Counted from the stretch's first letter, positions 28,367 to 54,624 are shown. The stretch: DNA of 64,000 bases from Candidatus Nomurabacteria bacterium (GCA_016699085.1 CP064958.1:67785-131784), one strand, 5' to 3'. Numbers and translations are program-made. Notes: generated by a model from the sequence alone, not told the origin.

Positions 28367-31298
28367 TTGATGTTAAGAGAGCTAGTATAGACATACCGCT
28401 CTTATCATACACCTCTTCTGGCAAATTTGGCTTTGTTACAACTATATGAGTTAGATTCGTTGTTGCATTATACGTCGCAACAACTTTAAAAGCATCTTTA
28501 ACCTTTATCGTTTGAGTCAGCTTTTTATATGATCCATCATTGGCCAGATTCCATTTATACTCAATCGTTGTATGTGGAAATTTAATTTTTGGATTAGCAT
28601 TATAGCTAATATCTTTAACTCTTAGATTAATCGGAGAAATACCAGGGACAAAAGGTGCAGCATCGCTAACTAGATTGAGCTTTGTTGTATTACCTGATAC
28701 ATCAGCAATCGTATAGGTAAGATTTTCCTTCGTTGTTGAAGTTGGACTTTCTTCATCTACTCCAATAATACTTAGATCTTTATTGTCTTGATCAAATGCG
28801 ATAAATACTTCGGGAGCTGTAATATCAGGAACATTTACTTGCTCTAATATAGTTTCACCCGTACCATTTATCGTGTCATATGTCGCAATAAACGAATCAA
28901 CTTGCCCATCTGTAATACTACCTGTAGATTGACTTTGCGAATCATTACCAGATCCATCAAAAGAAGTAGCCGCAATAGTGTACGTACCTGCACCTGTGCC
29001 CGTAACCTTGAGAGTATAGTCCCCTACACTAGGTGTTGGAATGTACGCTATTTTCCAAGTATGTTCAGCTCCATTACCATCAGGATCATCATACATTTCA
29101 TTAACATAACTGGCATTGGGAATATCAGCAAAAGTCTCATCAGTAGATGGATCATAGCCAAGTTTGTTACCTGCTGGATCTGTTATAACAATATCGGCAG
29201 GAGATGCAACATTAAATGCAAGGTACACAGTTGCAACTCCAGTCGGATTTGGTTTGAAAAGTCTTAGTCCTGCAAATTGCTTACTGTATGCGCGGACATG
29301 CTCAGTAGTATTTGTTTCTGATTCATTGAGGGTTTTAGTGTTGTAAAATGCCGGATCTTTTACTTCATAATTATTGGATGAGAGCTTATTTGCAAGAACT
29401 ATAAAATGTGTGTGGGTTTTAGTATTTTTTATATACTGCACTTTTGCAATAACTGGCCGGTTGAGATCTAAATAACTATTGGCAAGACTGTAATTAGTTT
29501 CCGAGAAATCTCCAGAGTTTGCATCATAGGCTAATTGATTATCGGTGTATTGTGCTACTTTATACCAACTCATAGCACCACCAGGATAATAGCCCATATT
29601 GTTTTTTAACCAAGAATTTAATGTTAGTGGCGTTACATCATTTGCTTGTATATTTGTGATTCCATAATACCTAGCTACCATTACAGCAGAGACCATAGCG
29701 CAACCACAACTTGCAATTGTTATCCCACAACCAGTATTCCCAATACCATACGCATAATCTTGATTAAACCATGAAGAAGTTTCAGCAATACCGGGATAAG
29801 GTGATTGATTTTGTGTATACAGTGGTACATTTTGAATAACAAAATCAATATTATTTGTTATCCCAAATTCACTCCATGGGGATTTGTTATTTTGTGCATC
29901 CACTGCCCTGGCACGCCAGTGATACGAATCATCAGTATTCCCCTCACTCTTTATGCTAACTACTTCACCATCATTTACAGAGCCTGATATTAGTAAATTA
30001 GAACCGTCAAAAACTACATCATTAGGTTTAATTTCAACCTCCATAGAAGCCGTTCCTCCATCTGGCACATGCAACGTTCCTTTGAGGATAATTGTATCAC
30101 CCGTATTAAGCCCCCCTTCTGCAAGTGAGTAGCTACCATCAGATTTGAATTGAGTAAGTAAATCAATACTGGGGCCACTAGTGCCAGCAAATGGATCAGT
30201 AGATAACCATGGAGAAAATGAAGAAAGATATTGAATGTCCGCAGTATCTCCTTGTCCTGTAGGATTCACCAATTCATCATAAGGGCCACTTGGATCACCC
30301 CACCAATTATTAGTTAAGTCAGGTATAGTACCACCTATGATAAAAGCAACAGTATTCCCAGAAAAAGAACTTTGGTGGACACTAAATACCCCATGCTCTG
30401 TTCCCCGCATACCAATTGCATTATTAAGTATTTGGGAATTCGTCATTGTTAATACTTCATCATCGGGGCCCAATAGTTTGAAACCACCCTCTGAAGATAC
30501 ATTGTCAACTGCAATTTCAGAAAAATTTTTTATCACAACTGAATCAAGTGTAATATTTGTTCCTAATCCATAATATCGAATACCAGCTTTCCCAGTATCA
30601 AAAATACAATTTGTGCAACTAAGAGACGAATCGTAGGCAACAATAGCCGCATAGGTAGTGGTGTTTATTTCAGTAAAATCAGTTAAATAAACTTGAGAAG
30701 TGAAGCCACTAAAAATACCCAGCACACTATCAGCTATATCAATGTTCGTTGCTGTTATTGTTGCATGATCTGCATATATATCTCTATGATTGTGATTAAA
30801 GGAAATATGATCAATAGAGGCCGTAACACTATGGTAATAAAGCGCATTTACTGCATATGAAAAATCAACAAAAGCAAGTGCTGATGTTGCATTAAAAATT
30901 TTGATTCCTCCCCAGTCATCATATCCAGGAGATGTCAAACTACCATCATTATTAGAATCCCCGCTAACACTATCATCCAGATACGAAGTAAATATAATTG
31001 GATTTGAAGCCTCCCCGACCGCATGCAATGTGCCTTTGACAGAAAGTAGAGGTGGATCTTCATCATCGGGATCATCGGGGCCATAACTTTTAATTACAAC
31101 TCCGGGTTGGATAGTCAATATGACACCTAATGCAACATCTATCGGAGAAGTTATAATATAAGGGCTACCTCCGACATCCCATGTTGTATTGCTTGTAATA
31201 TTATTCGTAATAATAGTACTTGCATGAAGTTTGTTGTTTGGAGCAAGTACAATGATGGTAATAAGTACCATCACAATAAAAATATATTGCTTGTACAT
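28341..31298 (-). CDS. Large cell-surface protein (about 985 aa) with a signal peptide, a beta-helix-like region, a C39-like cysteine peptidase domain and C-terminal Ig-like domains. The true start is the Met at 31298.
   Basis: 'GNTGCGITIASCGCAMVSAVMVARYYG' (Cys box), then 'THTHFIVL' (His), then 'KDPA' (Asp), matching the peptidase C39/C39-like signature. The ORF-track N-terminal extension is a translated palindrome. Confidence 0.65.
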   Translation of the reverse strand: MYKQYIFIVMVLITIIVLAPNNKLHASTIITNNITSNTTWDVGGSPYIITSPIDVALGVILTIQPGVVIKSYGPDDPDDEDPPLLSVKGTLHAVGEASNPIIFTSYLDDSVSGDSNNDGSLTSPGYDDWGGIKIFNATSALAFVDFSYAVNALYYHSVTASIDHISFNHNHRDIYADHATITATNIDIADSVLGIFSGFTSQVYLTDFTEINTTTYAAIVAYDSSLSCTNCIFDTGKAGIRYYGLGTNITLDSVVIKNFSEIAVDNVSSEGGFKLLGPDDEVLTMTNSQILNNAIGMRGTEHGVFSVHQSSFSGNTVAFIIGGTIPDLTNNWWGDPSGPYDELVNPTGQGDTADIQYLSSFSPWLSTDPFAGTSGPSIDLLTQFKSDGSYSLAEGGLNTGDTIILKGTLHVPDGGTASMEVEIKPNDVVFDGSNLLISGSVNDGEVVSIKSEGNTDDSYHWRARAVDAQNNKSPWSEFGITNNIDFVIQNVPLYTQNQSPYPGIAETSSWFNQDYAYGIGNTGCGITIASCGCAMVSAVMVARYYGITNIQANDVTPLTLNSWLKNNMGYYPGGAMSWYKVAQYTDNQLAYDANSGDFSETNYSLANSYLDLNRPVIAKVQYIKNTKTHTHFIVLANKLSSNNYEVKDPAFYNTKTLNESETNTTEHVRAYSKQFAGLRLFKPNPTGVATVYLAFNVASPADIVITDPAGNKLGYDPSTDETFADIPNASYVNEMYDDPDGNGAEHTWKIAYIPTPSVGDYTLKVTGTGAGTYTIAATSFDGSGNDSQSQSTGSITDGQVDSFIATYDTINGTGETILEQVNVPDITAPEVFIAFDQDNKDLSIIGVDEESPTSTTKENLTYTIADVSGNTTKLNLVSDAAPFVPGISPINLRVKDISYNANPKIKFPHTTIEYKWNLANDGSYKKLTQTIKVKDAFKVVATYNATTNLTHIVVTKPNLPEEVYDKSGMSILALLTSNGILSYDF

Positions 31299-31396
31299 AT
31301 AGTATAAGTATATGCTTTGACTTTTTACTCGCAATATTGTAAAAATTTTTCTGTGGAAAACTTTTATATAAAAAACTTTTATGATATAAGGTTTTT

Positions 31397-31450
31397 TCAA
31401 ACTAAAATAATATATATACACGGCCGTGTATATATATTATTTTAGTTTGA
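31397..31450. promoter_or_regulatory. 54-bp perfect palindrome (putative operator) upstream of the surface-protein gene. It overlaps the stop codon of the PaaX-like gene.
   Basis: TCAAACTAAAATAATATATATACACGG|CCGTGTATATATATTATTTTAGTTTGA. Confidence 0.6.
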
Positions 31451-40860: not shown

Positions 40861-40966
40861 TATAAGTTCCGCCCGCCAAAAAACGAAATCGGATTTTAGA
40901 GCCGAAATGGGGTCACACCTTCGTGCCGACCATATTTTTGGTTCGGAAACCCTTTTCGAAAAATTG

Positions 40967-41053
40967 CGGAGGGTAAGAGATTTGAACTCTTGATGCTCTT
41001 TCGAGCATACCGCCTTTCCAAGGCGGCGCACTAGACCACTATGCGAACCCTCC
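40967..41053 (-). tRNA. tRNA-Ser (anticodon GGA), with a long variable arm and no encoded CCA.
   Basis: Manual cloverleaf: acceptor GGAGGGT/ACCCTCC, D-stem GCA/TGC, anticodon stem CCGCC/GGCGG with loop TTGGAAA, variable arm ATGCTC-gaaa-GAGCAT, T-stem AAGAG/CTCTT with loop TTCAAAT, discriminator G. Confidence 0.85.
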
Positions 41054-42049: not shown

Positions 42050-43756
42050 TTACAGTAACTTTTTCAGTCTTTTTTCAATATACATATCTATCTCGTCTAT
42101 ATTTTTCTGTAGTGTAGTAAAGATAACTTTTTCTTTCTTGTTTAACACACGGTCAATTTTTATTGCTTCAAGTGATAGTAATTGCTTTGCTAAGTCTTCT
42201 TTTACTGACACCAGTTCATTATGGATTTTAGTGATGGTTTCTTTCAACTCGCGTTCAATCTTTCTTTTTGTGCCAAAATATTTATGCCATCCAATATAGC
42301 AAACAATGAGTAAGCCGACTGAACAAAGAATTATACATAAGAGCCAGAGCATGGTAATGGTTACTTGTGCAACACTTGTCTGATTTACTTTTACAAATAT
42401 TTTTTCTGAGGGCTGGCTTTTAACCTCATCGGAAAGAATATTTGTACCGTAGATACTCAGTATTCCTACCTTTTTTATCTTATCTGTAGTAAAACTGAAA
42501 GTTCCATCCGTAGACGTTACCTCAGTATATTCCTTAATAATTTTGCCATCTAGTTGGACAGTTATGACAACAGGTGTGTCGGGATAATCGCTTTGCCCGG
42601 AAATAATGACTGATTCTCCTTTCACTATTTCTGTAGCATCAATAGATAGTACTGGTGCAGTTATATAAGAACTTTCATATAACAATTCTGACGTTGTGTA
42701 ATTACCCGCCCTGTCGTATGCCGTCACTACTAAACTATGATTTCCTTGATTCAACACTGGAAGTGAGTATTGTTCATCTATCAATGTATCACTCTTCACC
42801 AGTAACGGTTCTGCCGAATCAATTTTTATTGTGTAGTAGTCTATTCCTGAGGTCACATCTTCCGCATTTAATGTGAGTAGGTTCTTATAATCTACAGTAT
42901 GTACGACAGGAACAAATTCTTTTGGCGGTGTTGCATCTATCTTGATTTTATAATGCGCAGTTGGACTACTACCACCTGCACTGCTATATGAAAGATGGAA
43001 ATAATGTATACCGTCCACGATATTAGTAAGAGTCTTTTCTGAGACAGAACTATCATAGACTAGAGTGGGTGTTGCATTTGAGATCTTATTCAAAAGAGTT
43101 TTAAGAGAACTAACCCCATCTGGCACTTTCCAATTAAAGGAGGCAGTATTATTTGCATACCAGATTTCCTGATTTGGATGAGTACTGGAGTAAATCTGAG
43201 GTTTTACTAATGATGAACTTGAAGTATCTTCAGTGGTAGTTGCATCCTCTAGAATTCCTATAGCAACAACACTTCCTGATTTTGAAATTAAAATATTTGT
43301 ACCTAACCCATCATTTTCTCTAACCGCCGCATCAGAGTACACAATTGATGCTGTGCCTACCTTTTTAGCTTTAAATGTAATAGTTGCAATCGTACCACTA
43401 CCACCTTTATAACCAGGATTTACAATACCTCCATTATAGGAGATTACGCCTGTGGTGTTCGAAAAAGTTGGTTCTTCTACCCATAAAGTAAAAATAGAAT
43501 TACTCTTGCTTATTGATACTACCTGAAGTAAATCTACGGGAAATAAAATTTCCCCGTCAGAATTGTTTATATATTTTCCTGACGTGTTCGCAATAACGCT
43601 AATAGAAAACGTATTTCCAACACTCGTGGTGATAGTACTAGGTAAAAGCGAGAGTGTTGCGGAAAAAACAATAGTGGGTAGTAGGAAAAAAATTACTACA
43701 CTGCACGCGACAAAACTATATGTCTCAAGTATCGATTTATAGAGTAGTTTGTGCAT
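42050..43756 (-). CDS. Type-I membrane protein with an N-terminal cohesin-like domain, Ig-like domains, a C-terminal transmembrane helix and a cytoplasmic coiled-coil tail.
   Basis: Signal peptide; 'ILFPVDLLQVVSISKSNSIFTLWVEE...GTIATITFKAKKVGTASIV' cohesin-like beta-sandwich pattern; C-terminal transmembrane 'ITMLWLLCIILCSVGLLIV'. Confidence 0.5.
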   Translation of the reverse strand: MHKLLYKSILETYSFVACSVVIFFLLPTIVFSATLSLLPSTITTSVGNTFSISVIANTSGKYINNSDGEILFPVDLLQVVSISKSNSIFTLWVEEPTFSNTTGVISYNGGIVNPGYKGGSGTIATITFKAKKVGTASIVYSDAAVRENDGLGTNILISKSGSVVAIGILEDATTTEDTSSSSLVKPQIYSSTHPNQEIWYANNTASFNWKVPDGVSSLKTLLNKISNATPTLVYDSSVSEKTLTNIVDGIHYFHLSYSSAGGSSPTAHYKIKIDATPPKEFVPVVHTVDYKNLLTLNAEDVTSGIDYYTIKIDSAEPLLVKSDTLIDEQYSLPVLNQGNHSLVVTAYDRAGNYTTSELLYESSYITAPVLSIDATEIVKGESVIISGQSDYPDTPVVITVQLDGKIIKEYTEVTSTDGTFSFTTDKIKKVGILSIYGTNILSDEVKSQPSEKIFVKVNQTSVAQVTITMLWLLCIILCSVGLLIVCYIGWHKYFGTKRKIERELKETITKIHNELVSVKEDLAKQLLSLEAIKIDRVLNKKEKVIFTTLQKNIDEIDMYIEKRLKKLL

Positions 43757-44654
43757 TGTATTTCCATCGTAGTATCAGTTTAATGAACGCATATAAACAA
43801 ATAATAATGAGTACTGACACAACTATTGCTACCCAGTTAATTGGCTCTTTTGATACTACTGTTGCAGTTTGAAAGTTTCCTGCTTTGTCATACGCCAACA
43901 CTGTCACATCCACATCCTGGGTTTGGTTTATAAGAACGTAATGACTGCCGCTTCTAACGCCAGGATTTGTTCCTTCTCTTACCTCGTAATAACTAATTCC
44001 TGATTGTCCATCAGTGGTCTCAAAAGAGAGAAATTTCTTACCATCATATAGATAACTATCTTGCAATACTTCTACAGTGAAAGCCTCTGGGGGTATATTG
44101 TCATTAGAAATAATTTCCTGCCATTTATCTATATTACTTTCATTTGCAACTCTAACTGAAATTATTGATATATCTTTCACTACCGTGCTTGGTGTACCTA
44201 ATCCATCATTGAGATACGCAGTGACACTACTTGGCTTTATAGTAAAATCGCCGGGTTGGTTTATTTTCACAATTACTTTAAAAAGTAATAACTTATCCCC
44301 AGATACCCCACCTGGAAGTCCACCGACAAAATTAATATTTCCCTCTTCGAGCGATGGTTTACGTGGCCACAGGGTGAAAACCGAATTAACAACACTTAAA
44401 TCCTTTATTTCAAAATTGCCATTGTGGGTATCACTTAGGGTAAGTGAACCATCCACTGAATTAATCTGCTCCCCTTCTGTATCCAGATAAATATCAATAA
44501 TGCTAGTATCCCCAGCCACCAAGGCGCTATTTGATGAGGCACGAATAGCTACTGCATAACTTGTGACAGGTAGAGCAAAGGAGGTAATGAACAAAGTTAC
44601 CGTAATAAAATATAAAAGTGCTCCTTTATTTCTTTTTAAAAATTGTTTTTTCAT
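43737..44654 (-). CDS. Type-I membrane protein with an N-terminal cohesin-like domain and a C-terminal transmembrane anchor.
   Basis: Signal peptide; 'IIDIYLDTEGEQINSVDGSLTL...FTLWPRK...LLLFKVIVKINQPGDFTI' cohesin-like pattern; C-terminal transmembrane helix. Overlaps neighbours by 4 and 20 nt. Confidence 0.5.
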   Translation of the reverse strand: MKKQFLKRNKGALLYFITVTLFITSFALPVTSYAVAIRASSNSALVAGDTSIIDIYLDTEGEQINSVDGSLTLSDTHNGNFEIKDLSVVNSVFTLWPRKPSLEEGNINFVGGLPGGVSGDKLLLFKVIVKINQPGDFTIKPSSVTAYLNDGLGTPSTVVKDISIISVRVANESNIDKWQEIISNDNIPPEAFTVEVLQDSYLYDGKKFLSFETTDGQSGISYYEVREGTNPGVRSGSHYVLINQTQDVDVTVLAYDKAGNFQTATVVSKEPINWVAIVVSVLIIICLYAFIKLILRWKYNAQTTL

Positions 44655-46570
44655 TTAGGTTTTGTTCCCCACTGATACAGCATAATAGAAAAATCAATTG
44701 AATCAACTTTTTGATCAAGATTGACATCTACGCAAGGATTAGAAAAGGTGGGTGATTGCTTCCAAAAGAACAGTAATATGGAAAAGTCTACTGAATCTAC
44801 AAGACCACTAGAGTTGAAATCGGCCCCATTACACTCACTTGTATCTGCGTCGTCACTTGAGCCGGAAGCTCCCCCTCCTCCTCCACTACCTCCACCTCCT
44901 CCTCCAGCCTGCTCCTCACTCACCTCAGTCACAGTGAACACTCTAGATGCACCAGAACTATCTGTCCCGAAGTAAACAACCAATTTAAAATAATAGGTTC
45001 CAATTGAAGCCACACTTGCTGTGAGATTTGTGTTCCAATCTTCGCTAGGATTTATAAATTTTGCTGCCGATGCATAGTATGCGTCATCATTCCCACCGCA
45101 TTCATTATCTAAATCAGTAACCACACACCATTCATAGTCATATTCATATCCACTAAGACCTTCGTTAGTGATAGTTACATTTCCCAACACCGAACTTATA
45201 CTAGACGCTGTCACAGAATTTATCAATACCTGTGCGGGTGAACCTGAAACTTCCCAATAATCATTTGTCTGGATCGTCTTTCCACTTTCAACTTCTGTTG
45301 AGGCAACTGTTTCCCATAAGCCCTGAGAGGCGCCTGAAGCGACAGTATATGTATATTCATACACACCTGTACTCACCAGTGTCATGGGTACAGCGGAGAC
45401 AACCGCATTACGGTTTGCATCATATACAGTTACTGTGGGCACTGAAGCAGGCGCTGTTGGTGTAGCGCTACTATTTAAAATATATACTTTAGTTCTATAT
45501 ACATATCCAGCTTGAATTCTCTCTAGATTACTCATCCTTACTGACCACCCTGTAATTGATGAAATAGTGCCATCCAAATTGGTCGCAATTTGGGCCCCGA
45601 TTGATCCGACAGCAACAAGTGAATCGGAAAGTACGTTCCACACATCCGCAGCAGTAATATCATTACCATAGTTTGTAAGTGTCCTCGTTGCATTTGCCCA
45701 GACAGCAGTAGCTATGGAGGAAGTGGAGTAATCTGTGAGCGTGCGGGTAGCAGATGCCCACACATCAGCAGCGGTAAGATTACTAGTACCCCGACTAGAT
45801 ACTTCCACATCGAGATTATCCACAATCTTTTTCCCGATAGTACCCGATGTTGTTAATCCTGATGTAGCGACATCCCAAATTCCTTGTTTTGAAGCAGTGG
45901 AGAGTTCTACCGTACCACTATTAATCGATCGAGTACCGTATCCCCAAACATCCGCAGCAGTAATATTATTTAGCGCATTGATTAAGGTTCGATTTGTTTC
46001 AATTTCTGTAACTATTGTATTTTTTGCAGTATCAATATAACTCTCCGTTGCAAGCGATCCTCCCCCGGTCAATGTTTTATCTGTTAAACGCCTCACTGAA
46101 GCGTATGTATCATTCCACACATCAGCAGCTAGTGAACCGAATGCAGTCAGTGTACGATCACCATTGGCCCACACACTTGTCGCAATAGAACTATCGGTAA
46201 GAGTAGCTGTTTTAACAATAAATGTCTTGTCAACCTTAACAAGATCACCAGCAAGTGCCGTACCACAAGACATAAATGAAGCATATTTCCCGTTTGTAAC
46301 GGGGGCAACATAATCGTAATGATGCCATCCGTTTGCATCGGCGGTCATTACTACCTCATTCACCAGAGTTGTTCCATTCGGGCTATATATAGAGATGGTA
46401 CAGTCACTCGTATTTGCCGTGAAATCATCGTTGTATACAAATTCTCCTACAGTGATCGTATCACCAGGTGCGTATACAGTCTCTGATGCAAGCGTTACAG
46501 GTGCATTGCTAAAAAAAGTTACTAGCAGTACAACAAATAAATATTTTCCAAAGTAAGAACGAAAAATCAT
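44651..46570 (-). CDS. Secreted protein (639 aa) with 'AADVW...TRTLT' repeats, a Gly-rich linker and a C-terminal tandem dockerin-like module.
   Basis: Sec signal peptide; 'GGGGGGSGGGGGASGSS' linker; C-terminus 'DFNSSGLVDSVDFSILLFFW' plus 'DVNLDQKVDSIDFSIMLYQW', a duplicated Ca-binding dockerin-type segment. Confidence 0.6.
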   Translation of the reverse strand: MIFRSYFGKYLFVVLLVTFFSNAPVTLASETVYAPGDTITVGEFVYNDDFTANTSDCTISIYSPNGTTLVNEVVMTADANGWHHYDYVAPVTNGKYASFMSCGTALAGDLVKVDKTFIVKTATLTDSSIATSVWANGDRTLTAFGSLAADVWNDTYASVRRLTDKTLTGGGSLATESYIDTAKNTIVTEIETNRTLINALNNITAADVWGYGTRSINSGTVELSTASKQGIWDVATSGLTTSGTIGKKIVDNLDVEVSSRGTSNLTAADVWASATRTLTDYSTSSIATAVWANATRTLTNYGNDITAADVWNVLSDSLVAVGSIGAQIATNLDGTISSITGWSVRMSNLERIQAGYVYRTKVYILNSSATPTAPASVPTVTVYDANRNAVVSAVPMTLVSTGVYEYTYTVASGASQGLWETVASTEVESGKTIQTNDYWEVSGSPAQVLINSVTASSISSVLGNVTITNEGLSGYEYDYEWCVVTDLDNECGGNDDAYYASAAKFINPSEDWNTNLTASVASIGTYYFKLVVYFGTDSSGASRVFTVTEVSEEQAGGGGGGSGGGGGASGSSDDADTSECNGADFNSSGLVDSVDFSILLFFWKQSPTFSNPCVDVNLDQKVDSIDFSIMLYQWGTKPK

Positions 46571-46659
46571 TGTCTATAAATTAGCTAGCACTTCATTAAT
46601 AAATAAGTCTAATTCCATAAAGCATTACGGGTGTACAAACCTTTTACAGCATCAAAAAA

Positions 46660-46836
46660 TTACCTTTTGTTACCCAATGATTTTAGAGAATTACCACTTG
46701 ATTGCTTAAAAGCACCAATGACACTTCGTATTGCATCAAGAAAACTCTTTGTCATTTTTGGAATTCTTTGTGCACTAAAAAGAAAAAATATTACCAACAC
46801 TATTATTACTACCTCCTTTCCACCGAGCCCAAACAC
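46660..46836 (-). CDS. tatA: Sec-independent translocase TatA/E-like (59 aa, GTG start). Not in the ORF track.
   Basis: Reverse translation 'FGLGGKEVVIIVLVIFFLFSAQRIPKMTKSFLDAIRSVIGAFK': transmembrane helix, then 'FG', then an amphipathic helix. Confidence 0.6.
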   Translation of the reverse strand: MFGLGGKEVVIIVLVIFFLFSAQRIPKMTKSFLDAIRSVIGAFKQSSGNSLKSLGNKR

Positions 46837-46845
46837 ATCGAAATA

Positions 46846-47004
46846 TTATTTCTTCTTTATATCATCGTCAGACTTAAATGCTCCTGTTATGTGCTTAATC
46901 GCATCAACAAGACTTTTTGCTAATTCGGGTATTTTTTTAGCCCCAAAAAGAACTACAAGAATAACTGCAATGATAATTATTTCTTTTGTACCTAGTCCAA
47001 ACAT
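46846..47004 (-). CDS. tatA: Sec-independent translocase TatA/E (53 aa). Not in the ORF track.
   Basis: Reverse translation 'MFGLGTKEIIIIAVILVVLFGAKKIPELAKSLVDAIKHITGAFKSDDDIKKK'. Confidence 0.7.
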   Translation of the reverse strand: MFGLGTKEIIIIAVILVVLFGAKKIPELAKSLVDAIKHITGAFKSDDDIKKK

Positions 47005-47015
47005 ATATGTAAATG

Positions 47016-47750
47016 TTATTTTATAATTAAACTATGACGACTTTTAAAACTTGAATTAACCAGTATGGTCAACTCATAAATCAAGACCATGGGCAATGCC
47101 ATTAAGACTAATGATAGACCATCAGTGGGTGGAAGTAAAGAAACGAGAATAAATATAAAAACAATCGCATGGCGTCGCTTGGAGCGCAGGTAGCGCACGG
47201 TAGTAAAACCAGTTCTAATGAGAAAGGTAATGACTATGGGGAATTCAAACACAAGTCCGAGGAGTGATGCAGTAAGTACAATCTCTGAGACAAATCGTGT
47301 AATATCCCAGTAATTTACAATACCAAGTGTTGTGTTGAGGTGGGCAATCGTTTCAATCGCAAAATAAAGTATTGCGAATCCATAGCCAAATCCTAAAAAA
47401 AAGAGCGGGATAGATACAGGTATTAATGCAATAAATAATTTTTTTTCAAGTTTTAATAAACCTGGACTCAGAAATGCATATAAATGATAGACGAAAAATG
47501 GTGTTACGACGACACTGGCAAGAAAGAACCCTGCACTCATAGCAAGATTTATAAGTTGAAAGGGTGCCGTAGTAACTATCAGCACATCTTTTATTGCAAG
47601 ATGCTTAATAAATAACTTTATGAGCGGACTTGTAGTAAAAAATCCAATGATAAATACAAGTGCAAAAATTCTTAAGAGAGATAGGAGTCGCCACTGTAAT
47701 TCATTAAAATAATTACTATATTGATGGAGATATTGATGCAAGCCATCCAT
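47016..47750 (-). CDS. tatC: Sec-independent translocase TatC.
   Basis: 6 transmembrane helices; 'LSPGLLKLEKKL', 'FEFPIV', 'LRSKRRHAIVFIFILVSLLPPTDGLSLVLMALPMVLIYEL' TatC signatures. Confidence 0.9.
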   Translation of the reverse strand: MDGLHQYLHQYSNYFNELQWRLLSLLRIFALVFIIGFFTTSPLIKLFIKHLAIKDVLIVTTAPFQLINLAMSAGFFLASVVVTPFFVYHLYAFLSPGLLKLEKKLFIALIPVSIPLFFLGFGYGFAILYFAIETIAHLNTTLGIVNYWDITRFVSEIVLTASLLGLVFEFPIVITFLIRTGFTTVRYLRSKRRHAIVFIFILVSLLPPTDGLSLVLMALPMVLIYELTILVNSSFKSRHSLIIK

Positions 47751-47754
47751 AATA

Positions 47755-48621
47755 TTATGGTAATTTCTTCTTAGGCTTCGGCTTTACCATATTAATACTA
47801 GGATCTTGTACAGGTGCGATGGGTATTACTTCTATTGAACTTGTGGGTAGTTCTGGTTCAGGCACTGGGGTCGATTCGTCTGGTTCTGGCTCAACAATTG
47901 GCACGACTGGTGCTTCTTTTGGTACTTCAGAGTTTGTCACAGGCGAGTCAGATGGCTCATCATGAGAAATAGGTGGGCTTACAATATTGACACGATGATC
48001 ATTAAGCCAATCTGCAACTGCATCGACACCATCACTCCATGATGGATAGGTTCTCGTATCCACTCCATTATTACCGACATTACCAGGGTTATTGGTTTTA
48101 GCCCCAATACCAAGAGTGCCAAAAACAGAATCAAGTTCTATGAGTGCCATCATCAATCGGACATCAATATTGTATTTTACACCTGAATCAAAAATCATTT
48201 GCCCAGTAAGCGGACTTTCAACAGCAGTAAATCTGACATACTGCTCAATTTCTTCTGCTGAACTCATGGTGCCCATTTTTTCTAGGATACTCTGAATCTT
48301 TTTTTCATGATCAGGATCTACTGCATACGAAGTAATATCATATTCAAGCAAACATTTTGTAGCATCTGTTATCGTCGTAGGATTAAACGCAGCTTCAATA
48401 CCCTTCTTTACTACATCAGCTTCTGAAAAGGGAGTATTCACTGCCGTCTCTTCAATACTAGAGAGTAATTTTAATTTGGAAACTGTATTTTGCACATCAA
48501 GAATTTCAGCATCTACTGCCACAATCCTCTCCAAATCACCTGACTGGAAAGCCTGATCTTTCGCAAGGGTCAAGCCATTTAATCTATTCGTCAATAATTG
48601 TATTAAATAATCTATATTCAT
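47755..48621 (-). CDS. Coiled-coil protein with a possible glucosaminidase-like (peptidoglycan hydrolase) segment and a Pro-rich C-terminus.
   Basis: 'MALIELDSVFGTLGIGAKTNNPGNVGN' resembles FlgJ/GH73-type motifs. C-terminus 'PVVPIVEPEPDESTPVPEPELP'. Confidence 0.35.
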   Translation of the reverse strand: MNIDYLIQLLTNRLNGLTLAKDQAFQSGDLERIVAVDAEILDVQNTVSKLKLLSSIEETAVNTPFSEADVVKKGIEAAFNPTTITDATKCLLEYDITSYAVDPDHEKKIQSILEKMGTMSSAEEIEQYVRFTAVESPLTGQMIFDSGVKYNIDVRLMMALIELDSVFGTLGIGAKTNNPGNVGNNGVDTRTYPSWSDGVDAVADWLNDHRVNIVSPPISHDEPSDSPVTNSEVPKEAPVVPIVEPEPDESTPVPEPELPTSSIEVIPIAPVQDPSINMVKPKPKKKLP

Positions 48622-48627
48622 AAATAA

Positions 48628-51477
48628 TTAAAAGAAAAGAAGCATTCGCCACATTTCAGCTCCAGTATGACGCATTACGTACAAATATTTCAATCCGTCT
48701 GTGGTCTCTATTATTTCCATTCTATTACCAATAATTGCTGTGGAATGACCATATGGAATTGTTCCTAAAGATTTTACTTCATTTGTAGAAAAATTATATG
48801 CATAGATTCTACCTGTAGCATTTTTAGTAAAATAAATAGTATTTTCTCCATCATATGCATACATAGACCCCGTCGTAAGAGTTTCTGCTTGTGGTGAAAA
48901 GAAATACCCATACGTCCACCGGGAAGTGGTTATGTCATAAATATCAGCTGTATTAGAGGCACCACCTCTCGGTAAAAAAATATATTTACCTTTCGTTGCA
49001 CTATCACTATTTCCCCAAACCCACAATAATTGCATTCCGGCACCTCTTGCTGGAATACCCAAGATCGCATACGTAGAAGTTGTGTCTGTCAGAGTAAGTG
49101 CTGCTGTGGTAAGTGCGGTTGCAGTATTTGAAGTAATGGTTGCCTCCTGACCAAGCGCTGTTCCTCCTGTAATACGCAACCTCTTACCGGCCCACATATT
49201 TGTAGTCCAGTTTTTTGTGGTTGTCTCTGTGACTGGTGTTGTTGTACCACCAGCTGTTATTAAACCCCAACTATCTGCTATTTCATAATGGGTAGTACTA
49301 TCAGGAGTAAAAGATTGAGTAGCATAAGTAAGAGTGGTACTAGTATTTGAAACAACAGAAATAATACCACTTGCAAAACCTGTGCCTGCTTCTATTCGAA
49401 GCTTATATCCTGCCCAGCAGTTGGTCACCCAACTCTTTGATGAATCAACGAGTGTCGTGGTCGACCCCCCTGACGCATGTCCCCAGTTTTGCATATTTGC
49501 AGGTTTAAACTGATTGTCAGTGCCAAAAACTTTTGAATCATAAATTGCGTATCTTGAAGTTCCATTCACACCCGCTACAATAGTCGCCACCGTTAATGTA
49601 GTAGCAGTGTTCGCAGTAATCCATCGTGTCTGACTAGTAGGTGCAGTACCAGCAACTGATAGATGTACCAACTTTCCAACATGTTCATTTGTTGTCCATG
49701 CTTTTGATGCATCTACAATTAACGTCGTTGACTGAGAACTATTTGCAGCCATACTTGCAGTTGCAGTAGTAGCTACATCAAAAGTAGTTGTACTTCCAGC
49801 ACCTAATATAGTATGGGCTGTATTATAAGCTGCTTCAGAGCACCCAGCGAAAGTCACTGAGTCTCCTGTTTTAAACCAGTTCGCTGTGGGTGTTGTAATC
49901 AGACAAGTTACCCCTACTGAAGTTATTTCAATAGTACAACCAGATCCTGTGCCACCCGTAGTCGCCTTACCTGTACCAGTAGTAAATCCAGTAACCGTGC
50001 CAGAAGCAACAAGCTCTATCGCAGTAACAACACCAGTAGAACCTGAAAAAGTAGTAGCTGTAACAATAACACGGGCACCTGTGCCTCCTACTGAGCACGT
50101 CAAAATATCTCCGACTAAATATCCTGTCCCACCTGCTGTAGGTGTTGAGTTTACTGCTGTCACACCAGCTGCAATTCTTGCACCACTTGTCACACCAAGT
50201 GCATCCCAACCATTCATCTTTACCGATATATTTGTTGTAACTCCGTAATCAAAATTTTGACCTTGCATCCAGAAATCATTTTCAGGTGAATATGCGTACA
50301 TTGCACCAGCCGCACCTCCTGCTAGAAACATTTTGTCATAATCGCCCCACACTTCATAAAGAGAAGTTGCGTCTGGATTTGTATCCCATGGTTTAACTAC
50401 AGTAAACACCGTCGCTGTATTACAGACAATCCTTCGGTGTTGCCCCATTCCTGTGCCCCCAGTGATACGAATACGATAATTAACATATCTATCTACTGTC
50501 ATTGTTTGTGTGGAATCAGTCAAAGTTCTCGCAGCGCCAGCCGTAGCAGTAGAAGAAACAAATGCTGTACCTGTTTTTGCCAATCGTTCAACGGAACAAT
50601 CAGTACCTAGTGCTGCTTGTATTAAACCTTGATTACAAGTCTTTGTTTGCCAAGAATCATGTAAAATATCGTAATATTGTAGAGTAAAAAATGGTGCCGA
50701 TGCCGCAGACGACAAAACATAAATCCCTCCAGTGGTTGTTGTAAAATACGAAGTATAATCTGGTGTGACATCCCAAGTAGATACGGTGTATGTGTGGGAT
50801 AAAATTTGGAAATGTGCCTGAGAACCAGCAGTGGTAACAGGAAGCGCATAAGGTGCTACCGCTACGAAGGGTTGGTTGTTCCAAGATTCGTGTGGTTGTA
50901 AGTTTACATCATATATATAGAGAGTGGTTGCATCATTATATAAAATCTTCTTATATTGTGTCGCATCTGTACCGAACGTAATACCTACAAGATAGCCTGA
51001 CCATTGATTAAATTTCCACTTTTTAGTGGAATCAGCCAAAGTTGAAGTAGTAGTACCCGTAATCACACCTGCATCGTGAATGGTCTCACTGGTATACGTG
51101 AGTACTTTTTCTTGACCAGCACCTGTGCCGGTTAATATTTTTAATGTTTTACCATTGAGAGTGGGCCCACGAAGCCCCGCTATTTGAATAGTTGTTGCTG
51201 TCGCACTGAGTACCCGACCATGATAGCCACGGAAACCAGTATAGCGTGCAGACAAAGTGGTTACAGGAGTAGTGTTTGGCGTTGAGAGTTGTTGCCAAGT
51301 ATCAGCATAGGTATCATATCTATACAGTGTGGCAGTAGAAATATAATACAGGAATCGAGCAGATCCATCATCAGATGTAGCAAGCCCTGAAAGTGCAGCA
51401 GTGTTGGTGGGGGCAAAACGACACCACTCCCAGACTGGTAAATCAACCTGTGCTTTTAAATTATTGGTGACTGCCAT
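48628..51477 (-). CDS. Giant Thr/Gly-rich protein (949 aa) with at least six internal 45-aa repeats and no obvious signal peptide.
   Basis: Repeats of the form 'T.xDSxKxWxTNxWAGxxLRIxxGTGxGQxxxIxSNTATxLT', seen 6 times. Confidence 0.5.
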   Translation of the reverse strand: MAVTNNLKAQVDLPVWEWCRFAPTNTAALSGLATSDDGSARFLYYISTATLYRYDTYADTWQQLSTPNTTPVTTLSARYTGFRGYHGRVLSATATTIQIAGLRGPTLNGKTLKILTGTGAGQEKVLTYTSETIHDAGVITGTTTSTLADSTKKWKFNQWSGYLVGITFGTDATQYKKILYNDATTLYIYDVNLQPHESWNNQPFVAVAPYALPVTTAGSQAHFQILSHTYTVSTWDVTPDYTSYFTTTTGGIYVLSSAASAPFFTLQYYDILHDSWQTKTCNQGLIQAALGTDCSVERLAKTGTAFVSSTATAGAARTLTDSTQTMTVDRYVNYRIRITGGTGMGQHRRIVCNTATVFTVVKPWDTNPDATSLYEVWGDYDKMFLAGGAAGAMYAYSPENDFWMQGQNFDYGVTTNISVKMNGWDALGVTSGARIAAGVTAVNSTPTAGGTGYLVGDILTCSVGGTGARVIVTATTFSGSTGVVTAIELVASGTVTGFTTGTGKATTGGTGSGCTIEITSVGVTCLITTPTANWFKTGDSVTFAGCSEAAYNTAHTILGAGSTTTFDVATTATASMAANSSQSTTLIVDASKAWTTNEHVGKLVHLSVAGTAPTSQTRWITANTATTLTVATIVAGVNGTSRYAIYDSKVFGTDNQFKPANMQNWGHASGGSTTTLVDSSKSWVTNCWAGYKLRIEAGTGFASGIISVVSNTSTTLTYATQSFTPDSTTHYEIADSWGLITAGGTTTPVTETTTKNWTTNMWAGKRLRITGGTALGQEATITSNTATALTTAALTLTDTTSTYAILGIPARGAGMQLLWVWGNSDSATKGKYIFLPRGGASNTADIYDITTSRWTYGYFFSPQAETLTTGSMYAYDGENTIYFTKNATGRIYAYNFSTNEVKSLGTIPYGHSTAIIGNRMEIIETTDGLKYLYVMRHTGAEMWRMLLFF

Positions 51478-51481
51478 ATAA

Positions 51482-52195
51482 CTATGAAAAAACTAAATTA
51501 CTTCTAATTCCATTTGCTGAGGCATTTCTTGCTGTATCAATATACAGATAACGTCCATCAACGCCTCCTAATGCCACGAGATTGGTTGCTGATGTAAGTG
51601 TCGAGACAGTAGTTACCGTTGTTACGGTTCCCACAGTAGTGACAGTACCAAGTGTAAGTGAAGCCGAAATTGCATCAAGGGTGATTTTTTGTCTTTGTGC
51701 TGTATCAACGACTGCCAACGAGTCTACTTGTTTTACCAATCTACGCAGAAGCATTGCACTATCATCAGTTGCGGGATTTACTTGGGTGCTTGTAGTGTCT
51801 TTTACCGTAACACTGCTCGTTCCTCCAGTGGAAGCAGTAAGTAGGTTATTACTCCCATCAAAGGTAAGGTTTGCTGTTTTTGCTTGAATGAGAGCGAGGG
51901 TAGTCTCAGTGGCAGGATCGATCCGTACATTAGAGATATTTTTTACTCCAACAACACTTGAAGATGGAGTACTTCCCATGATCAACGCCTCGGCTTTTTT
52001 AGGCAACAATTGTGACGCTACCAAACCGACACCGGCAATGCCGGCAACTTTTAGAAAATTTCTTTTACCGTTATCAGTCTCTAATGAATGTTTATTATTT
52101 CCATTTCGCGCACTACCTGAGCCTGGTTTTACAATACTACTTAATGTATTTCTAGAAATTAATTTGAAGGAATATTTGATTGGAATGATATACAT
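51482..52195 (-). CDS. Exported Thr-rich repeat protein (237 aa) with a twin-arginine-like (KR) signal peptide.
   Basis: 'NGKRNFLKVAGIAGVGLVASQLLPKKAEA' is a Tat-type n-region plus h-region plus AxA cleavage site. C-terminus 'TVGTVTTVTTVSTLTS'. Confidence 0.5.
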   Translation of the reverse strand: MYIIPIKYSFKLISRNTLSSIVKPGSGSARNGNNKHSLETDNGKRNFLKVAGIAGVGLVASQLLPKKAEALIMGSTPSSSVVGVKNISNVRIDPATETTLALIQAKTANLTFDGSNNLLTASTGGTSSVTVKDTTSTQVNPATDDSAMLLRRLVKQVDSLAVVDTAQRQKITLDAISASLTLGTVTTVGTVTTVTTVSTLTSATNLVALGGVDGRYLYIDTARNASANGIRSNLVFS

Positions 52196-52268
52196 AGATT
52201 CGTAAATTTATTATATGTTATATTTTATCTTTTGCAATCACGAAAATGAGTCAGAAAAATTTCCTGTG

Positions 52269-53442: not shown

Positions 53443-54624
53443 CTAAGCAACAGCTGTCAATATATGACGCTCCTTTAAGGATATACGATTCTTGTATGCC
53501 TTAGCAAAAGTGATATTTTTATCTACGATTACTGAACTAATTTTATGTGCCCTAGCAATATTACCTAGAGGGATTTTTTCATCAATCGTGTCTTGTGATA
53601 ACTCATGTTTCCCTGCCCAAATTTCAAGTAGCTTTAAATGTTCATCGTATTTAGGATCATCGGCTATATTAAACAATTGATGTGCATCACGGGATCGCAC
53701 TAATGTAGCTAACTCATCAATTGAAAAATCAGCTTCAACCTCATGTAAATAGTCCAAGATGAGCGTGTCTGTAATTTCTATTTCTTTTAATTTTTCTATA
53801 TTTTGGTCCAAAAAATATACCCCGAAGTAGCCATATTTTTCATGAAGTGCATTGAGTAATTGTATTCTTTTTTCGATAATTGCTTCCTGGTTTGCTTCAA
53901 TAAATGCTTCATTAGCATTTTTAAATGCATGAGCTTGGCTGTATATATCCAAAGAATCAATATATTCTTGATGAGCATATTCGCTTGCGTGACGTTCATT
54001 TGGATCGATTACCCCACGTTTTACCTGAACCAATATTACTTCTAATATTTCATTTGAGAAAGGTTCAGAAATTATCTGAACAAGATCTATTTTATGTTTT
54101 ACATCGAGAGTATTATTTGTTCCTATAATACTATCCATCCCTTTATATTGCTCATTCCCATTAAATGATGAATTCATTTCCTCAACTACTTCTGCAACCT
54201 TCTCAACACCGAGCATCATCCCTTCTATATATTGCTGGACGTTTCTTGTGGCTTCGGGTTCTATTTCATCTTTTTTATTTTTATTCTTTTCTTCAACAAA
54301 ATATCTTGTATAGTCTGAAACAAAACGAGGAAGATTATTAAGCTTATTATTCACCACCAGCTCAAGTATACGATTTTGGAATACAACCTCTGGCAGATAC
54401 AAAGTTCGACGGTCTGGGTCATCATTTTTTGTAAATTTTCGAATAGTTTCTATCGTTCTTGCATCTAGACCATTCACATGAATTGCAGCAATTTTTCTAA
54501 AAAATGCTTCTTGTTCTTCAATCTTTAGTCCTGGCACAATGCTTAAATCATTTATATTTTCTTGTCGATATTCAGTCTGACTGTTTTTTTTCTTATCTTT
54601 CCCAACAAATAGTGAAAATTCCAT
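53443..54624 (-). CDS. Hypothetical cytoplasmic protein (393 aa).
   Basis: ORF only. Confidence 0.4.
   Translation of the reverse strand: MEFSLFVGKDKKKNSQTEYRQENINDLSIVPGLKIEEQEAFFRKIAAIHVNGLDARTIETIRKFTKNDDPDRRTLYLPEVVFQNRILELVVNNKLNNLPRFVSDYTRYFVEEKNKNKKDEIEPEATRNVQQYIEGMMLGVEKVAEVVEEMNSSFNGNEQYKGMDSIIGTNNTLDVKHKIDLVQIISEPFSNEILEVILVQVKRGVIDPNERHASEYAHQEYIDSLDIYSQAHAFKNANEAFIEANQEAIIEKRIQLLNALHEKYGYFGVYFLDQNIEKLKEIEITDTLILDYLHEVEADFSIDELATLVRSRDAHQLFNIADDPKYDEHLKLLEIWAGKHELSQDTIDEKIPLGNIARAHKISSVIVDKNITFAKAYKNRISLKERHILTAVA

Follow-up and report, generated by a model that had tools for sequence, protein, structure and literature searches.

A Tat translocase encoded with phage-related cargo and a cohesin–dockerin cassette: a candidate surface-display locus of Paceibacteria

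Why should a twin-arginine translocation (Tat) machinery be encoded in the same cluster as a giant protein of 949 amino acids and three proteins with cohesin- or dockerin-type modules? The question is raised by nine genes on the chromosome of a Candidatus Nomurabacteria bacterium, within a stretch of 64,000 nucleotides (GCA_016699085.1 CP064958.1:67785-131784) that is the DNA analysed here and is referred to below as the window; all coordinates are window positions. In transcription order the genes are g1 (237 amino acids), g2 (949), g3 (288), tatC, tatA1, tatA2, g7 (639), g8 (305) and g9 (568). We put the probability at about one half that they form a composite surface-display operon, in which Tat and a phage-derived cargo module (g1 to g3) are combined with a cohesin–dockerin module exported by the general secretory (Sec) pathway. 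Nine co-oriented genes with short or negative gaps had been proposed in an original prediction from the sequence, and nine intact open reading frames (ORFs) do stand where it placed them, all on the minus strand (Table 1) and separated, in transcription order, by 4, 6, 4, 11, 9, 89, -4 and -20 bp. The largest gap, of 89 bp, falls at the boundary between the Tat-cargo module (g1 to tatA2) and g7-g8-g9 and contains no terminator-like site.

The cargo genes have relatives in phages. The first clue was a g2 homologue, 59% identical, on a phage-like contig (L006), where it lies amid tail-fibre-like, collagen-like and small ORFs and has no Tat, cohesin or dockerin gene in its vicinity. At least 207 viral contigs with full-length g2 relatives (40–62% identity) were found by scanning IMG/VR; like our other collection scans, this one was built on short peptide patterns, with which relatives can be missed, and the IMG/VR labels were checked for nine loci. 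Across the 80 viral loci retrieved, the homology spans residues 1–949 of g2, and tatC, tatA, g7, g8, g9, dockerin and cohesin genes are present in none (0/80). Neighbouring genes in eight viral loci belong mainly to the tail fibre, collagen-like minor tail, tail, tail spike and virion structural families of PHROGs. Nor is the resemblance confined to g2: in 41 viral loci, as in the cellular ones, g2 is accompanied by the g1 C-terminal domain, the ORF directly upstream matching the C-terminal half of g1 only (residues ~115–237) and in no case (0/41) showing a Tat-like motif, and in many loci the g2 homologue is directly followed by an ORF of 52–56 amino acids that resembles g3 in its N-terminal coiled coil (44% identity to g3 residues 1–50 in locus L087).

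The same three genes occur in the Pseudanabaena siphovirus Pam2, where gp65 (150 amino acids), gp66 (875) and gp67 (53) come right after the distal-tail and minor-tail genes. Pam2 gp65 is 55% identical to the g1 C-terminal domain and gp66 is 39% identical to g2 across 88% of its length, and both gp65 and gp66 have been identified in virions by mass spectrometry (PMC9382816, Supplementary Table 2). Pam2 and the IMG/VR relatives share with the cellular genes the order of a small partner, a ~900 amino acid propeller protein and a ~53 amino acid coiled-coil ORF; unlike the cellular genes, the phage copies lack the Tat signal, the lysozyme-like domain of g3 and the tatAC, cohesin and dockerin neighbours, and are flanked by tail-fibre genes. 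A library of 1.84 billion cluster representatives yielded 463 relatives of the g1 C-terminal domain, and the top 150 of these comprise 104 short, signal-less proteins (median 140 amino acids) and 46 long proteins with a Tat-type signal (median 272 amino acids). Compared in this way, the cellular trio reads as the phage trio with two parts added, in that the small partner bears an extra Tat signal and the coiled-coil partner an extra lysozyme-like domain, and g1-g2-g3 would descend from, or have been exchanged with, a three-gene phage virion module. The phage link emerged through gene context and translated searches only; a PHROGs scan of g1, g2, g3, g7, g8 and g9, together with two upstream flanking proteins, left the six cluster proteins without a family match.

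Existing annotations of this family are misleading. Pam2 gp66 (L088, ON014754.1 65292-67919) is labelled ‘flagellar hook-length control protein FliK’, and relatives of g2 in Parcubacteria carry the labels ‘Mucin-2 precursor’ or ‘FliK’. Such labels are almost certainly annotation errors that arose from a T-rich composition, the fold being that of a Kelch-type propeller, and a phage virion family now labelled ‘FliK’, ‘mucin’ or ‘hypothetical’ thereby gains a fold and a defined gene context. Contig L006, which is identical to L016 (JGI 3300020045 Ga0206662_1000002), measures 353,233 bp with a GC content of 37% and carries the pair formed by g2 and the g1 C-terminal domain. It also encodes IF-1, an HNH endonuclease, tail-fibre-like proteins of 1474 and 844 amino acids, a staphylococcal-nuclease-like protein and a 1576 amino acid multi-glycosyltransferase/methyltransferase. 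Given the 59% identity to Nomurabacteria g2, a host among the candidate phyla radiation (CPR) would be worth testing for this phage.

The original prediction took g2 for a giant repeat protein of the adhesin type, a view that gives way to its relationship, over the full length, with the phage virion family and to its predicted fold. Structure models were made of g2 and g9 only, and that of g2 confidently predicts a six-bladed Kelch-type β-propeller with ~680 amino acids of inserted β domains. The family is narrow in length, the best 120 of 603 matches being 937–972 amino acids long and 57–98% identical, and identity to the phage copies lies between 44 and 57% in every 50-residue block. Because conservation is so uniform along the protein, any ligand of g2 is probably conserved and g2 is not a typical variable-tip receptor-binding protein; an assignment to the classical form of that group was considered and found no support. 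Searches of PDB sequences with the single proteins and with a g2 profile returned nothing useful.

The translocase genes were correctly recognised in the original prediction, as was the KR-type Tat signal of g1. TatC matches PF00902 over the full profile (E 4e-37, positions 3–208 of 208) and TIGR00945 with E 3.7e-35, at 121.8 bits slightly under the equivalog cut-off of 132.7. Both TatA copies pass the PF02416 cut-off of 21 bits, the first with 46.7 bits (E 1.8e-12) and the second with 22.7 bits (E 5.8e-5); the second is missing from some related loci, a single TatA being encoded in L003, L005 and L007. The signal of g1 passes the Tat-signal model TIGR01409 (17.9 bits, cut-off 16.7) and reads GKRNFLK, followed by the hydrophobic stretch VAGIAGVGLVASQLLP and then KKAEA. 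Among the 120 best g1 homologues, 118 have (K/R)R-x-F-L-K with a hydrophobic h-region, and the basic c-region and an A-E/D-A cleavage motif are also kept; KR predominates at the twin-arginine position, with RR in 12. No other ORF within the window has a Tat motif. Once cut at the AxA site, g1 (~17 kDa in its mature form) is left with no predicted membrane anchor, and no signal peptide is predicted in either g2 or g3.

Two further features of the g1 family may be recorded here. The prevalence of KR suggests that the co-encoded TatC is adapted to KR signals. The n-region is unusually long (Table 1), and at least 45 of the 120 homologues (P0241–P0360) share an extreme N-terminal motif, (L/I)P-x-K-(Y/F)-S-F-(K/R)-(L/F)-(V/I), located 27–62 residues (median 40) upstream of KR-x-FLK and retained in L003 and L005 despite the change of cargo type described below. 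This motif might bind a chaperone or regulator, or might be an artefact of mis-called starts.

How might g2 and g3 leave the cytoplasm? Tat hitchhiking, in which signal-less subunits are exported by virtue of a partner's signal, is established for HybOC and PaoABC (PMC4273604). We infer a similar route here: g1, g2 and probably g3 would assemble in the cytoplasm (a 1:1:1 complex would amount to ~150 kDa), the adjacent minimal TatAC would export the folded complex, with g2 and g3 hitchhiking on the g1 signal peptide, and signal peptidase would cut g1 at the AEA site. The Tat route would suit such cargo because the cytoplasm is where phage virion proteins fold and are assembled, and Tat carries folded proteins. 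As in Escherichia coli hydrogenase-2 (HybO/HybC) and the aldehyde oxidoreductase PaoABC, a small subunit bears the signal and larger, signal-less partners are encoded alongside it, and what would be exported is a folded, pre-assembled complex, for which PaoABC is a three-component precedent (PMC4273604). The known hitchhikers, however, are cofactor-containing redox enzymes, in which cofactor insertion explains folding in the cytoplasm, whereas here the candidate hitchhikers are homologues of virion proteins, the signal is mostly KR and tatAC lies inside the cargo operon. Pfam searches matched no cofactor-binding or redox family in the cargo proteins.

The second module, g7-g8-g9, is of a different kind. 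All three proteins have Sec-type signal peptides and no twin-arginine motif. The original prediction was right about the dockerin of g7, if not on the Pfam score of that protein: g7 itself scores 18.4 bits against Dockerin_1 (PF00404), below the cut-off of 22.9, and the L001 orthologue 19.2, but the orthologues in L002–L005 score 27.2–34.7 bits. The consensus of a dockerin F-hand is D-x-N-x-D/S-x-x-V-D-x-x-D, followed by a helix, and in g7 two calcium-binding F-hand segments, DFNSSGLVDSVD and DVNLDQKVDSID, can be read by eye in the form of a duplicated motif (DFNSSGLVDSVDFSILLFFW from residue 584, DVNLDQKVDSIDFSIMLYQW from residue 615). There is also a weak match to the Cel5A dockerin 2vn6_B. 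Upstream lies an MG2-like immunoglobulin (Ig) domain (E 1.7e-11), and a glycine-rich linker precedes the dockerin. Residues 130–320 of g7 hold six copies of (A/S)(A/T)(A/D/S)VW, each followed ~4–6 residues on by R(T/S/R)L(T/I) (AADVW...RTLT); Pfam has no match over this repeat.

For the cohesins, which were rightly recognised too, the Pfam outcome is likewise divided: PF00963 matches neither g8 nor g9 at E<1, yet 10 of 80 g9 orthologues match it (best E 5.4e-9) and the AlphaFold2 model of g9 has the cohesin fold. That model (predicted local distance difference test score, pLDDT, 85.5) comprises a signal peptide, a β-sandwich, three Ig-like domains, a transmembrane helix and a long cytoplasmic helix, and the β-sandwich is predicted to be of the jelly-roll type characteristic of cohesins; searched against the PDB, a g9 profile found Ig-like adhesin repeats only. 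The N-terminal domain of g8 is a paralogue of that of g9 (E 6e-9), and each of the two anchors has a single cohesin. The cytoplasmic coiled-coil tail of g9, ~80 residues long, is conserved in orthologues as well as seen in the model, with W490, K492, H512, K519 and E530 among its near-invariant residues, and suggests that the anchor also contacts something intracellular.

Because g7 has no match among cultured phages and no relative of the cohesin proteins was found in 2.9 million viral contigs, g7-g8-g9 appears, on sequence grounds, to be purely cellular and not phage-derived. The C-terminal membrane anchors of g8 and g9 would present the N-terminal cohesins outward on stalks of Ig-like domains, where they would hold the dockerin-tailed g7. 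Set against non-cellulosomal cohesin–dockerin pairs, with cohesins such as that of Archaeoglobus fulgidus (2xdh) and those of Clostridium perfringens glycoside hydrolases (2vo8, 2w1n), the arrangement here differs in placing a single cohesin atop a membrane-anchored Ig stalk, and in that two paralogous anchors always follow one dockerin-tailed protein, with which they are predicted to pair, in a fixed three-gene cassette of Paceibacteria.

Is this arrangement more than an accident of one genome? The loci L001, L002, L003, L005 and L007, from other Paceibacteria, have the same gene order with different flanking genes: a Tat-signal protein, a large protein, a protein of 240–310 amino acids, tatC, tatA (sometimes twice), a dockerin protein, a cohesin protein of ~300 amino acids and one of ~570. 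Recurrence in independent genomes with different flanks confirms that the arrangement is beyond chance, and bears out the co-conservation that had been predicted. When one genome per GTDB species was scanned, 470 were found to have a relative of g9. Among the best 80, which were retrieved, 78 are labelled as Patescibacteria lineages, as unclassified bacterium or as ‘Candidatus Saccharibacteria’, and the lineages named include Nomura-, Taylor-, Adler-, Niyogi-, Wildermuth-, Jorgensen-, Komeili-, Zambryski-, Wolfe-, Magasanik- and Gribaldobacteria; the remaining 2 are labelled Gammaproteobacteria. The many loci among L092–L171 labelled uncultured Candidatus Saccharibacteria, and the two (L150 and L171) labelled uncultured Gammaproteobacteria, probably reflect loose or wrong taxonomy or mis-binned contigs.

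Gene content was counted in the 38 species loci whose upstream sequence extends for 8.5 kb or more. g8 adjoins g9 in all 38, a dockerin protein is encoded in 34 and tatC in 20, and in those 20 loci, which belong to many candidate Paceibacteria lineages, the Tat module and the trio are adjacent, co-oriented and in the same order. The other 18 have g7-g8-g9 with no tatC within 10 kb. The single self-contained apparatus that was originally envisaged is thus not borne out, the trio being separable. In L004 (4523-8323), which lacks Tat, the trio is preceded by a Sec-signal protein of 1266 amino acids with phage tail-fibre PHROG matches and a Peptidase_S74 chaperone domain; in L132, L135 and L165, again without Tat, the dockerin forms the tail of a giant protein of 2954–3143 amino acids. 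The dockerin carrier is accordingly highly variable (366 to more than 3100 amino acids), and the two cohesin anchors are constant.

These counts bear on the strongest rival to a composite operon, which is that the Tat-cargo module and the trio are independent and lie side by side merely as envelope genes that share a region in this lineage. Such a view would account for the 18 loci without tatC, for the other partners that the trio has in L004 and in the giant dockerin proteins, for a gap placed exactly at the module boundary and for the difference in export route, Tat on one side and Sec on the other. Against it, 20 of 38 loci, with different flanks, preserve both order and orientation, the gap lacks a terminator-like site, and mature g1, with no predicted anchor, would leave its complex in need of a holder. 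We regard two unrelated neighbours as rather unlikely. On the composite-operon reading, the exported complex needs something to hold it because mature g1 lacks a membrane anchor, and g7-g9 would most likely be the socket that retains it, since the two modules adjoin in about half of the related genomes. This link between the trio and the complex is the weakest step of the proposed mechanism.

A complex of the size envisaged would also have to pass the cell wall, and here g3 may be informative. Its predicted glucosaminidase-like segment (Table 1) is lysozyme-like in character (GH73/GH23-like): g3 itself reaches 25.4 bits against Glucosaminidase PF01832, short of the 30.2-bit cut-off, but 10 of 10 family members tested match this family (best E 2.7e-7). 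Gene by gene, the original description is on the whole right. A family profile weakly matches the catalytic-motif region of the lytic transglycosylase MltC (E 0.025), and candidate acidic residues are E162, which one of the ten members lacks, and the nearly invariant D164, kept in at least 90%. The fusion to the hydrolase segment is kept in all family members examined. The Pro/Glu/Thr-rich tail of g3 is a linker of variable length, and a basic cluster ends many members, although not all (KPKPKKKLP, KKKNKRKIA, GNRRRRTA, PIRRRRV).

Specialised peptidoglycan hydrolases serve envelope-spanning machines, FlgJ in flagella and VirB1 in type IV secretion. By analogy, g3 combines a small lysozyme-like domain with an interaction domain in the operon of what would be a bulky, wall-crossing structure, and it matches the same Pfam family as FlgJ (PF01832); unlike FlgJ and VirB1, it lacks a signal peptide and begins with a phage-type coiled coil, and its hydrolase is putative. 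The simplest reading of the domain is an enzyme dedicated to opening the wall for a complex too bulky to cross the peptidoglycan; it would act locally on the cell's own wall, or on that of a partner cell, and let the complex reach the surface.

A rival reading of the same features is a secreted lytic weapon, comparable to a phage lysin without a tail. On that account g1-g2-g3 would be released, the propeller would bind another cell, g3 would cut its wall, and nutrients would be freed for a dependent CPR cell. Cleavage at the predicted AxA site would indeed release g1 from the membrane, the lysozyme-like segment is lacking in the phage counterparts, and the phage relatives are located among tail proteins. 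The hydrolase domain is nevertheless short and below threshold, no target is indicated, and a module so often linked to a membrane-anchored trio is more likely to be retained than released, so that we consider such a weapon improbable.

If a surface-display operon is the better description, what does it display? The cargo turns out to be exchangeable. L003, L005 and 16 of the 38 genome loci have unrelated proteins of 720, 240 and 60 amino acids at the g2/g3 positions. With this change of cargo type, the N-terminal ~100 residues of g1 are kept (~50% identity) and its C-terminal half differs. The ~720 amino acid protein of L003 and L005 was considered as a short homologue of g2 and rejected, there being no similarity; it is treated as a separate cargo, type B. 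Cargo B also has relatives in phages, one of them in L089 between the large terminase and the portal/major head genes. Type A (g2) or type B (represented by a 722 amino acid protein) accompanies tatC in 19 of 20 tatC loci.

Sequence identities within the locus are discordant as well. Between the window and L001, g2 is 86% identical, TatC 55% and g9 51%; between the window and L002 the figures are just 44% for g2, 53% for TatC and 49% for g9. More generally, g2 is 80–86% identical among genomes whose TatC proteins share just 47–55%. Rough neighbour-joining trees of g2, based on a small cellular sample, give three cellular groups, the nearest outside neighbour of each being a phage sequence and not another cellular group: L008 for the window with L001, L110 and L007; L087 for L002 with L117; and Pam2 for L144. 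Since each cellular group lies nearest to a phage sequence, the trees indicate several independent cargo exchanges with phages, and the slot has been refilled repeatedly with different phage-related cassettes. For the direction of transfer we rely mainly on the breadth of the phage distribution.

Repeated refilling would also be expected of an anti-phage mask or decoy, in which exported copies of a virion protein from the cell's own phages shield a receptor or bind virions and the cargo is swapped as the phages change. The polyphyly of cellular g2 among phage sequences and the discordant identities of L001 and L002 fit this idea. The one cultured phage with the trio, though, infects a cyanobacterium, g2 lacks a variable tip, and the vicinity showed no known defence gene, although no dedicated search for defence genes (PADLOC) was run; we know of no precedent for a chromosomally encoded, Tat-exported decoy made of virion protein. 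A decoy is in our judgement quite improbable.

The original prediction itself, that a dedicated Tat system exports and assembles a cohesin–dockerin complex resembling a small cellulosome, draws on the fact that the Tat, dockerin and cohesin genes are co-oriented and co-conserved. It is hard to reconcile with the Sec-type signals of g7, g8 and g9, g1 being the only candidate Tat substrate encoded in the window; with the absence of Tat from about half of the trio loci; and with the way in which Tat tracks the phage-derived cargo. Although cohesin and dockerin modules are shared with cellulosomes, a scaffoldin with tandem cohesins, dockerin-bearing carbohydrate-active enzymes and a carbohydrate-binding module are all missing from the locus, and a Pfam scan of g7 found MG2-like and Ig-like domains only, with no carbohydrate-active enzyme domain, glycoside hydrolase or carbohydrate-binding module. 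The locus is not a member of that class, and a Tat-assembled mini-cellulosome seems highly improbable to us; a role in assembling something at the surface is still the most sensible reading, and here the original prediction is upheld.

To the idea that g1-g3 are decaying phage tail genes beside tatAC, without cellular function, we give almost no credence: the phage homology is clear, but the setting is an ordinary chromosomal one with no further phage genes in the window (PHROGs negative), the ORFs are intact, the Tat-signal fusion is present in 118 of 120 homologues and the hydrolase fusion in every g3 family member examined, the position beside tatC is conserved across lineages, g2 remains 80–86% identical where TatC has fallen to 47–55%, and a prophage was accordingly rejected.

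Several observations weigh against the surface-display operon itself. Tat substrates were surveyed across the 64-kb window, and the translocase is presumed to be dedicated to this cargo. Most g1 homologues have KR in place of RR, and the signal comes 27–62 residues after the conserved N-terminal motif, an unusual placement for Tat. Even conservation of g2 gives no sign of a role in host recognition, and the hydrolase match of g3 is sub-threshold, with the candidate catalytic glutamate replaced in 1 of 10 members. Binding of g1 to g2 and g3, and of g7 to g8 and g9, is a prediction from sequence and gene context. A complex of ~150 kDa built on a 101-kDa propeller would be at the upper end of known Tat cargo, the known substrates being ~20–70 Å across (PMC4273604). 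Finally, the 18 of 38 loci in which the trio lacks Tat, together with the 89-bp gap, mean that the modules may be independent.

As a whole, the assembly would be used for contacting other cells or particles. The nearest functional parallel, by inference and analogy, may be the mosaic adhesive trimer (MAT) fibres of Bdellovibrio, phage-like surface proteins that recognise prey (PMC10769870): in both cases phage-like proteins would be found at the surface of a bacterium dependent on other cells. MAT fibres are trimeric with mosaic variable tips and are summarised in the abstract of that paper without mention of Tat export, whereas g2 is a uniformly conserved β-propeller. A broader and more tentative proposal, possible rather than probable, is that Paceibacteria have here a ‘capture and display’ platform, with a private Tat system, a generic signal-bearing N-terminus of the adaptor and a cohesin–dockerin socket, into which different phage virion modules are repeatedly inserted for contact with host cells or for blocking the cell's own phages. 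If true, phage genes would be domesticated here by a route not recognised before, in which virion proteins are turned into surface equipment, and this would be the first Tat system with virion-derived proteins as its main clients.

Paceibacteria (Parcubacteria) are mostly uncultured, with obscure partners and modes of attachment, and the locus supplies candidate parts: a 101-kDa propeller, an adaptor, a putative wall hydrolase and a cohesin–dockerin anchor. It may show how these poorly understood CPR cells equip their surface. It also suggests a possible reason for Tat in minimal, largely cofactor-poor cells, namely the movement of phage-type proteins folded in the cytoplasm. The repeatedly exchanged cargo ties Paceibacteria to many uncultured phages, including L006, and could help in assigning hosts to them. 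The ingredients are already known, in the form of Tat hitchhiking, non-cellulosomal cohesin–dockerin pairs, phage-like surface proteins and specialised wall hydrolases. Such a locus is not described in the literature that we searched on Tat, cohesin, dockerin, Patescibacteria and tail fibre, in agreement with the original view that the combination was undescribed: neither Tat in an operon with virion-derived cargo, nor a KR signal fused to a phage adaptor domain, nor repeated cargo replacement, nor linkage to a fixed cohesin–dockerin cassette across Paceibacteria.

Table 1 Features of the cluster, in transcription order (window positions)
Feature	Position	Strand	Description
Promoter-like site	52210..52237	-	TTGCAA, 16-nt spacer, TATAAT; in the 73-bp gap 5' of g1
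g1	51482..52195	-	237 aa; long n-region, KRNFLK, h-region, KKAEA (AxA site)
g1 n-region	52073-52195	-	aa 1-41
g1 Tat signal peptide core	51986..52072	-	~aa 42-70
g1 C-terminal domain	51485..51853	-	aa 115-237; homologous to small phage virion proteins, e.g. Pam2 gp65
g2	48628..51477	-	949 aa, 101 kDa, without signal peptide; predicted Kelch-type propeller; Pam2 gp66 homologue
g3	47755..48621	-	288 aa, without signal peptide; coiled coil, lysozyme-like segment, Pro-rich tail
g3 N-terminal coiled coil	48457-48621	-	aa 1-55
g3 putative lysozyme-like segment	47992-48204	-	aa ~140-210
g3 tail	47755-47900	-	Pro/Glu/Thr-rich linker
tatC	47016..47750	-	244 aa; PF00902, TIGR00945
tatA copy 1	46846..47004	-	52 aa; PF02416
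tatA copy 2	46660..46836	-	58 aa, GTG start, more divergent; PF02416
g7	44651..46570	-	639 aa; Sec-type signal peptide, MG2-like Ig domain, C-terminal dockerin
g7 six-copy repeat	45600-46200	-	aa 130-320
g7 MG2-like Ig domain	45275-45490	-	
g7 dockerin	44663-44821	-	aa 584-636
g8	43737..44654	-	305 aa; signal peptide, cohesin-like domain, Ig-like domain, C-terminal transmembrane anchor
g8 N-terminal domain	~44145-44552	-	paralogue of g9 N-terminal domain
g9	42050..43756	-	568 aa (locus tag IPF86_00555); signal peptide, predicted cohesin, three Ig-like domains, transmembrane helix, coiled coil
g9 predicted cohesin domain	43256-43660	-	aa 33-167
g9 transmembrane helix	42287-42376	-	
g9 cytoplasmic tail	42050-42290	-	aa ~490-568; coiled coil

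The promoter-like site upstream of g1 has 10 of 12 consensus matches and ties for best on the minus strand; it is a consensus match alone, and the region holds no more such sites than shuffled sequence would lead one to expect. Elsewhere in the window the chromosome encodes DnaE, ThrRS, GyrB, an AddA-like helicase, type III glutamine synthetase, SecD, an M48 peptidase, Band7 and LemA. An ORF of 393 amino acids (53443-54624) lies directly upstream of the locus, between the genes for the M48 peptidase and a small Gmad2-like Ig protein; like those of 566 and 411 amino acids at 13285-14985 and 22470-23705 (all three on the minus strand), it has no Pfam match. A 1026 amino acid ORF with a GTG start (28341-31421, minus strand) has Peptidase_C39_2 (residues 531–677) as its sole Pfam match. 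The only RNA gene in the window, a tRNA-Ser(GGA) on the minus strand (40966-41053), is found ~1 kb downstream of the locus.

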